Positions 36,165-36,291 of a stretch of DNA of 64,000 bases are shown one piece after another (positions within the stretch are counted from its first letter, which is position 1; each line of letters opens with the position of its first letter). The DNA is taken from NCBI RefSeq assembly GCF_000027125.1, contig NC_017626.1; one strand, 5' to 3'. The notes under the pieces were generated by a model. The model ran no database searches and was not told the origin of the DNA. It saw nothing but the letters and a program-made list of their open reading frames with translations. Position numbers and translations under genes: made by a program. The DNA is from Escherichia coli 042. Lineage in GTDB: Bacteria; Pseudomonadota; Gammaproteobacteria; Enterobacterales; Enterobacteriaceae.

Positions 36165-36291
36165 CTGCGGGTTATAATCGCACTTTTGCGGGTTATAACT
36201 GCCGTTTTGCGGGTTACGTGCGGGTTACTGATTTCCTTTTTATTCATACAGTTAATGCACTTATACACAGGATAACCCGCATAACCCGCAA
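36165..36291. repeat. iteron cluster (4 direct TGCGGGTTA(T/C) and 2 inverted copies), putative satellite replication origin
   Basis: Repeats immediately downstream of the primase/helicase gene. Confidence 0.7.

Follow-up and report, generated by a model that had tools for sequence, protein, structure and literature searches.

The window analysed here, a stretch of 64,000 nucleotides of Escherichia coli 042 (NC_017626.1), contains an element of 15,245 bp (27718-42962) that lies between two copies of a 7-bp att core, TTGGTAA, one at the terL-side end (27711-27717) and its repeat at the int-side end (42956-42962). The element sits within the terL gene of a prophage. The N-terminal part of the prophage TerL is fused in frame to the integrase of the element, giving an ORF of 807 aa (41560-43983), and the C-terminal part is found back in the ORF at 26981-27706. 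The integrase proper (41560-42783, minus strand) comprises 407 aa, is read in frame from the interrupted terL and has an annotated homologue in E. coli ETEC4085 (locus L001). The reading frame of the prophage TerL is restored when the two att cores are joined, and exact excision of the element would thus restore the prophage gene. The same insertion in terL was observed in ETEC4085, where two terL pseudogene halves are annotated, and also in loci L013 and L014. In addition, GCAATACAC(A) motifs are repeated on both sides of the att cores (around 27793 and 42804); these are likely, though putative, arm-type binding sites of the integrase.

The homologous stretch in ETEC4085 is 98% identical and annotated. 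Its order runs from int via two HTH regulators, BRO-N, Icd-like, DUF4222, DUF927, SSB and PerC to the genes for the major capsid protein, prohead protease, portal, connector, HNH, TerS (P27 family) and TerL, and the PHROG assignments of the ORFs in the window are consistent with that annotation. The last gene of the packaging module is the satellite terL (28233-29894, minus strand; phrog_9, 4.5e-181). Capsid-forming PICIs (cf-PICIs) were first described in bioRxiv 10.1101/2022.09.08.507074. They are characterized by a size of 10-18 kb, by the presence of integrase, regulation and replication modules without tail or lysis genes, and by genes of their own for capsid, protease, portal, connector, HNH, TerS and TerL (bioRxiv 10.1101/2025.02.11.637232). 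Both the size and the gene content of the element agree with this description. The element is a capsid-forming PICI, i.e. a phage satellite, inserted in a prophage terL, and the term satellite used in the first-pass annotation is borne out by the cf-PICI gene set between the two att cores. The same applies to its SSB label, as the ssb product (35677-36102, minus strand) matches TIGR00621 with 61 bits (cut-off 53.95) as well as phrog_44. The sole gene on the opposite strand (34542-35048, plus strand) is located between perC and the capsid gene and encodes a protein of 168 aa with a hydrophobic C-terminus (phrog_5789); its presence varies among close relatives and it is probably an accessory gene. 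PADLOC yielded no defence-system match for this ORF, for Rep or for the BRO protein.

The rep gene (36313-38433, 706 aa) and the ssb gene (an ORF of 141 aa) are both encoded on the minus strand and are separated by a gap of 210 bp. Within this gap the sequence TGCGGGTTA(T/C) is present in six exact copies between 36166 and 36290, four on the plus strand and two on the minus strand. The plus-strand copies of TGCGGGTTAT/C start at 36166, 36187, 36208 and 36219 (start-to-start distances of 21, 21 and 11 bp), and the minus-strand copies occupy 36272-36281 and 36281-36290, at an offset of 9 bp. The spacer in between (36229-36271) measures 43 bp and has an A+T content of 70%, versus 51% for the element. 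The outermost copies extend to a 20-nt inverted repeat, GGTGAAA(A/T)..TGCGGGTTAT, at 36156-36175 and 36281-36300. We refer to the complete structure (36156-36300, minus strand), delineated from the repeat scan, its statistics and the conserved position in relatives, as the putative origin module A. In the orientation of rep, the array of module A begins 23 bp past the rep stop codon with two packed iterons (36272-36290), which are followed by the spacer and by four iterons at distances of 11, 21 and 21 bp (36166-36228). The first gene downstream is ssb.

The repeat cluster is real and does not result from chance. The 9-mer TGCGGGTTA was observed 13 times in the 64-kb window where 0.48 occurrences were expected on basis of base composition, and 11 of these 13 are grouped in two clusters. 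The 10-mer pattern yielded 22 matches when at most one mismatch was allowed, as compared to 7.2 +/- 2.9 in shuffled sequences, and none of 100 shuffles reached that number. A multiplicity of six for a 9-mer was reached in 3 out of 2000 dinucleotide shuffles of the 210-bp gap. Moreover, the iteron columns are near-invariant among 30 unique sequences of the TGCGGGTTA class. The four direct and two inverted copies noticed at first pass are therefore confirmed, both by exact matches and by the shuffle statistics. Rfam matched no RNA family in the region 27000-43500, and promoter and terminator scans at both arrays revealed nothing relevant.

The only Pfam domain in Rep is DUF927 (residues 167-434, 3e-46), with a Walker A motif around residues 350-356. 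Its relatives of solved structure are the SaPIbov1 initiator with helicase activity (PDB 8tch, E 4.5e-14) and SCCmec Cch (5dgk), and the same two structures were the sole significant matches (probability 1.00) in a Foldseek search with the AlphaFold model of Rep. That AlphaFold2 model of the full-length protein, made from an alignment of 23 sequences, has a mean pLDDT of 60 with values below 50 for the ATPase core and the C-terminal domain, and a model of the last 120 residues (pLDDT 42) was unusable. The N-terminal part of about 130 residues is folded with confidence, and represents a domain that Rep has in common with the EcCICFT073 Pri-Rep (E 4e-25) and with other PICI Reps. In fact, at least four unrelated helicase cores were found joined to this one shared domain. 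The C-terminal 120 residues match the Pfam family HTH_56, the HTH domain of Cch, weakly (E 9e-4); the match recurs within the family, where 3 out of 20 members reach E <= 0.001. When a profile of the domain was compared to PDB sequences, the matches did not rise above chance level. The weak Pfam match and analogy make it probable that the last ~115 residues of Rep form a winged-helix/HTH domain.

The first-pass label 'primase/helicase' has to be revised for its first half. Pfam detects DUF927 and no primase domain in Rep, no primase is found among the Foldseek matches, the PHROG 'DNA primase' family aligns to Rep from profile position 244 onward only, and the similarity to P4 alpha in BLASTP is not significant (E 0.011). 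The N-terminal domain is not likely to be a primase either, because ~130 residues are too few. Judged by its relatives in sequence and structure databases, Rep belongs to the SaPI Rep/Cch family of helicase-initiators. The element revealed no primase, and the host is therefore assumed to provide the priming.

The connection between Rep and the repeats became apparent from a scan of IMG/VR, which provided 80 loci with a Rep homologue of 57-100% identity to the window Rep. All 80 loci have a repeated 8-mer, in 5-13 copies, that starts 26-150 bp past the rep stop. The repeats fall into six iteron classes (TGCGGGTTA, AGTGGGTTA, TGAACCAAC, TGAACCACG, TGGGACAAC and TGGGATAAG) and every class is associated with one type of Rep C-terminus, such that like C-termini pair with like iterons. 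More specifically, the iteron changes track the last ~115 residues of Rep and not the remainder of the protein. The Rep of L022 is 95% identical to the window Rep over residues 1-590 and 39% identical over residues 591-706, and is accompanied by the iteron TGGGACAAC. Conversely, the Rep of L010 is 87% identical over residues 1-590 and 100% identical over residues 591-706, and is accompanied by TGCGGGTTA. At the DNA level, the cassette that was swapped in L022 has one breakpoint around rep codon 600-607 and the other where the origin ends, and the neighbouring genes are 94% (ssb), 82% (DUF4222) and 75% (perC) identical to those of the window. The fact that in these natural chimeras the iteron goes with residues 591-706 only, provides strong indirect evidence that the C-terminal domain of Rep reads the iterons.

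PICI origins are composed of two iteron sets around an AT-rich region, located 3' of rep, and in the case of EcCICFT073 the rep-ori segment maintains a plasmid and deletion of either rep or ori impairs this maintenance (PMC6092414). In SaPIs, the C-terminal winged-helix domain of Rep binds the iterons directly downstream of rep and Rep loads itself; the AT-rich centre of the origin is flanked on either side by two or more iterons, in opposite directions (PMC9371898). The locus in the window has the same organization: the site is found 3' of the initiator gene, opposed iteron sets surround an AT-rich stretch, the helicase core of the initiator matches 8tch and 5dgk with a C-terminal domain weakly backed by HTH_56, and the six iteron classes match six Rep C-terminal types. 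The array at 36166-36290 is thus very probably the replication origin of the 15.2-kb capsid-forming PICI. Since the positionally equivalent rep-ori segment of EcCICFT073 drives plasmid replication (PMC6092414), it can also reasonably be inferred that the element replicates autonomously after excision, as had been suggested at first pass. A role of the repeats as transcription-factor operators for the ssb/perC/packaging operon, instead of as an origin, is highly improbable: ssb and the late genes indeed follow directly downstream of the array, and the element does encode PerC-like and HTH regulators, but the iteron class follows the Rep C-terminus while ssb and DUF4222 remain window-like (perC less so, at 75%), no sigma-70-like promoter was found in the rep-ssb gap, and PICI origins that were validated by experiment have the same layout (PMC6092414). 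Binding of Rep to module A could nevertheless have a side effect on transcription.

By analogy with the work on SaPIs and EcCICFT073, replication from the origin would proceed as follows. Induction of a helper phage would lead to excision of the satellite, after which replication would be driven by Rep. The C-terminal ~115 residues are predicted to recognise the 9-bp iteron TGCGGGTTA, and Rep hexamers would bind both opposed iteron sets via these domains, with all sites of module A on one helical face given their spacing of 9-11 or 21 bp. Rep would then melt the AT-rich core (36229-36271) and load itself there. The single strands would be coated by the satellite SSB, and host primase and polymerase would complete the replisome.

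A comparison with known systems shows that the origin principle is already established, and in that respect the origin itself adds little. As in SaPIbov1, SaPI1 and EcCICFT073, it is located immediately 3' of rep and has opposed iteron sets around an AT-rich region. The helicase initiator of SaPIbov1 is homologous to the window Rep, whose specificity maps to the C-terminal domain, and EcCICFT073 shares the order DUF4222-rep-ori-orfX-ssb-perC, with an iteron of its own (GGTAGAC) and an iteron gap of 290 bp. There are also clear differences. The SaPI iteron measures 5-6 bp (PMC9371898), whereas that of the window measures 9-10 bp (TGCGGGTTAY), and EcCICFT073 has a D5-like helicase core instead of the DUF927-type, so that only the N-terminal ~170 residues are shared. 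SCCmec Cch has a homologous ATPase core and C-terminal HTH domain but belongs to a different type of element, and we know of no iteron origin defined for it. Iteron plasmids (P1, F, RK2, pSC101) likewise have direct iterons, spaced ~21-22 bp apart, that border an AT-rich region of unwinding, as well as additional iteron arrays outside the origin. Their RepA-type winged-helix initiators (dimers/monomers), however, recruit the host DnaB, whereas here the initiator is the helicase. The cf-PICI literature that we searched contains no description of iterons or an origin for cf-PICIs, and a literature search for the iteron string returned unrelated primer sequences only.

The second cluster of the 9-mer, which was absent from the first-pass annotation, is formed by another array of six TGCGGGTTA copies at 27998-28152. 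The plus-strand copies are found at 27998, 28007 and 28015, the latter two with one mismatch each, and the minus-strand copies at 28100, 28121 and 28143. In the orientation of rep this array, to which we refer as module B (minus strand), consists of three iterons at a spacing of 22 and 21 bp (28143, 28121, 28100), a spacer of 75 bp with 72% AT (28025-28099) and three packed iterons (28015, 28007, 27998). Module B starts 81 bp past the stop of the satellite terL and is found at ~260 bp from the att core and ~8 kb from module A. Directly after its packed iterons follows a near-palindromic box, CTGTTTTGTATATATATACGAAAAATTG (27970-27997, minus strand).

The derivation of module B is suggested by the arrangement that is commonest in the relatives, a doubled origin in which modules A and B are positioned side by side at rep. 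Module A of these tandem origins has two packed iterons, ~45 bp of AT-rich sequence and four to five iterons at distances of 11, 21 and 21 bp. Module B is the mirror image, with two iterons at 21 bp, ~60 bp of AT-rich sequence and three packed iterons, and ends with a conserved near-palindromic box, GTTTTGTATATATA(TA)CGAAAAA. The doubled layout is common to all iteron classes, and both of its modules carry the iterons specific to the class. In L024 and L033, which have tandem origins, module B is the homologue of the distal array of the window, with 59 identical nt in the case of L024. About 15 of the 80 loci share with the window an arrangement in which module A alone is found at rep, and module B and the box after terL; in these split-type elements the breakpoint directly follows the fourth of the spaced iterons of module A. 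The six plus six iterons of the window compare to 11-13 side by side in the tandem origins. The homology suggests that the window origin represents module A of an ancestrally two-module origin, of which module B has moved to the att end. The iteron-origin layout proposed at first pass stands with respect to its PICI-type position and anatomy, whereas the array it described is only half of the predicted Rep-binding DNA, the second module being located 8 kb away. It was also observed that the 20-nt inverted repeat of module A is restricted to elements with a lone module A, and that tandem-type origins diverge in sequence from these elements after the fourth spaced iteron.

The box CTGTTTTGTATATATATACGAAAAATTG is kept after module B in all six iteron classes and in all distal copies. 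Its conservation across all six classes makes it probable that the box is read by another factor than the C-terminus of Rep. With its TATATA sequence the box was considered as a sigma-70 promoter, and this was rejected for lack of a match to the sigma-70 consensus. In the circular form of the element the box points across att towards int.

To see whether the distal module follows Rep, a second scan was centred on the satellite TerL and covered 80 loci. Among these are eight cf-PICIs with a TerL of 97-100% identity that carry other Rep classes together with other rep-adjacent iterons, namely AAAGTGGG (L085, L093, L113, L125), TGTTCACC (L117, L119, L128) and CCTCTACC (L133). All eight have 5-6 copies of TGCGGGTTA after terL, and none has its cognate iterons there. 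The homology of these elements to the window type resumes exactly after the first array, in the ssb leader, and continues through the distal array. The notion that the distal array co-varies with Rep in split-type elements is thereby refuted. Instead, rep and module A constitute an exchangeable cassette, whereas module B stays with the backbone of packaging genes and att. The rep and module A block (cf. 36103-38433) was seen to be exchanged as a whole in L085, L093, L113, L119, L128 and L133 relative to L086, between cf-PICIs that are otherwise 92-98% identical, with a left junction in the shared N-terminal domain of Rep and a right junction that shortly precedes ssb. Several cf-PICIs with a window-type packaging module (L117, L119 (1817-3990), L128, L101 and L104) were found to have a P4-like Rep, residues 137-599 of which are 49% identical to residues 313-776 of P4 alpha (E 6e-161). 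The rep-adjacent iterons TGTTCACC that go with these Reps are the P4 type-1 repeat, and they directly link the replication modules of PICIs and P4.

No second array was found in 12 relatives that have module A, of which only L005-7 and L019-21 are informative, because in several of the 12 the contig stops at terL or no more than about 3 kb from rep. Considering that module B is present with non-cognate Reps and absent in L005-7 and L019-21, it is not generally required for replication. Nevertheless, the module after terL appears to be maintained. In 22 unique variants of the distal copy, 3 of 27 iteron columns are variable versus 42 of 101 spacer columns (Fisher p = 0.003, anchor columns excluded), a test that is approximate in view of the close relationship of the sequences. 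The array is also kept in combination with three different flanks on the att side, and where an additional gene separates it from terL. Together, the conservation of the distal iterons and their retention next to differing flanks are suggestive of a function, though, as the carriers are close relatives, not decisive.

The window Rep is cognate to the distal iterons, and therefore should bind module B if it binds module A. In that case module B may serve for additional loading of Rep, for its titration or for looping, or may have no effect. That the distal module has some real function, whichever of the functional readings applies, is at best an evenly balanced proposition. The reading we tentatively put forward, as a possible one that is still rather unlikely in itself, is that of a functional second Rep-binding site that is selected independently of the resident Rep and is involved in cross-talk or incompatibility between satellites.

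The distal array may on the other hand be a functionless relic of the ancestral rearrangement that is carried along with the terL-att end, and this too we regard as possible but doubtful. The linkage of the array to the packaging backbone and not to Rep is in line with such a relic, as are the close relationship of all carriers and the finding that no array follows terL in tandem-type cf-PICIs of which the TerL is less closely related (82-93%). The lower variability of the iterons as compared to the spacers and the retention of the array in different surroundings argue against it, and no decayed copy of the array was seen.

Alternatively, the array could be a copy-control or incompatibility locus that titrates or handcuffs Rep, or that captures or competes for the TGCGGGTTA-class Rep of a co-resident PICI. 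Iteron arrays outside the origins of the P1 (incA) and F plasmids act in copy control. Such a role would explain why the array persists in elements with another Rep, and it is consistent with the intact 5-6 copies that accompany cognate and non-cognate Reps alike, with the conservation of the iterons relative to the spacers and with the fact that related Rep loci often share one E. coli genome, at up to 8 places per genome. Yet the argument is purely inferential, the persistence may simply reflect recent common descent, as the packaging modules of the carriers are 97-100% identical in TerL, and copy control is of no obvious use to satellites that amplify in a burst after induction. We therefore consider this role unlikely.

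A split bipartite origin as in P4, in which both arrays are required in cis and Rep loops between the modules, is quite improbable. P4 is a satellite replicon as well, and its initiator-helicase binds one type of iteron (type-1 repeats) in two separated clusters, crr and ori, with one cluster directly 3' of the initiator gene alpha and att nearby. P4 replication requires both ori and crr. The annotated P4 record has crr directly 3' of alpha and ori at a distance of 4.7 kb; likewise, the same iterons are found in both modules of the element, the total of 12 sites equals the 11-13 of the tandem origins, and the distal iterons are conserved above the spacers. The presence of two separated clusters of the same iterons is thus clear, and their binding by one initiator is a prediction. 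However, the window Rep has no detectable similarity to P4 alpha and no primase domain, and the distal site occurs independently of the resident Rep, which disfavours a strict analogy to ori and crr: co-inheritance of the P4 type is contradicted by the persistence of the distal cluster with non-cognate Reps in 8 loci. Assuming that they are active, these sister elements work without a matching second site, and L005-7 and L019-21 have module A only despite enough downstream sequence. Moreover, a single SaPI-type origin consists of just two iteron sets (PMC9371898, PMC6092414). As the distal array travels with the packaging genes, a role as packaging (TerS/cos) site was considered as well. This was rejected, since the array shows homology to module B of the origin, changes along with the C-terminus of Rep in tandem-type elements and is not found after terL in cf-PICIs with a TerS of 64-83% identity.

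In conclusion, the known rule for PICIs, an initiator gene followed by iterons around an AT-rich core, extends to the DUF927-type Rep of a cf-PICI. Natural domain swaps place the iteron specificity in the last ~115 residues of Rep, and the Rep C-terminus plus origin, and also rep plus origin as a whole, travel as cassettes between near-identical satellites. Possibly new are this cassette-like specificity, the doubled and roughly palindromic origin of most relatives, and the displaced and sometimes orphan module B. Published PICI origins have two iteron sets, whereas most relatives have four sets and two AT-rich regions, and in the element described here, as in one widespread E. coli cf-PICI lineage, the second module is located 8 kb away and in some members is an orphan. 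If the distal module indeed is a second Rep-binding site under selection of its own, module B in this element would act together with module A, either as a second site for loading of the helicase or as its partner in looping (cf. ori-crr of P4), and in the sister elements with another Rep it would allow replication by, or interference with, co-resident PICIs of the TGCGGGTTA class. An orphan module B, if active, would then provide a handle on the replication interplay between satellites that reside in the same cell.
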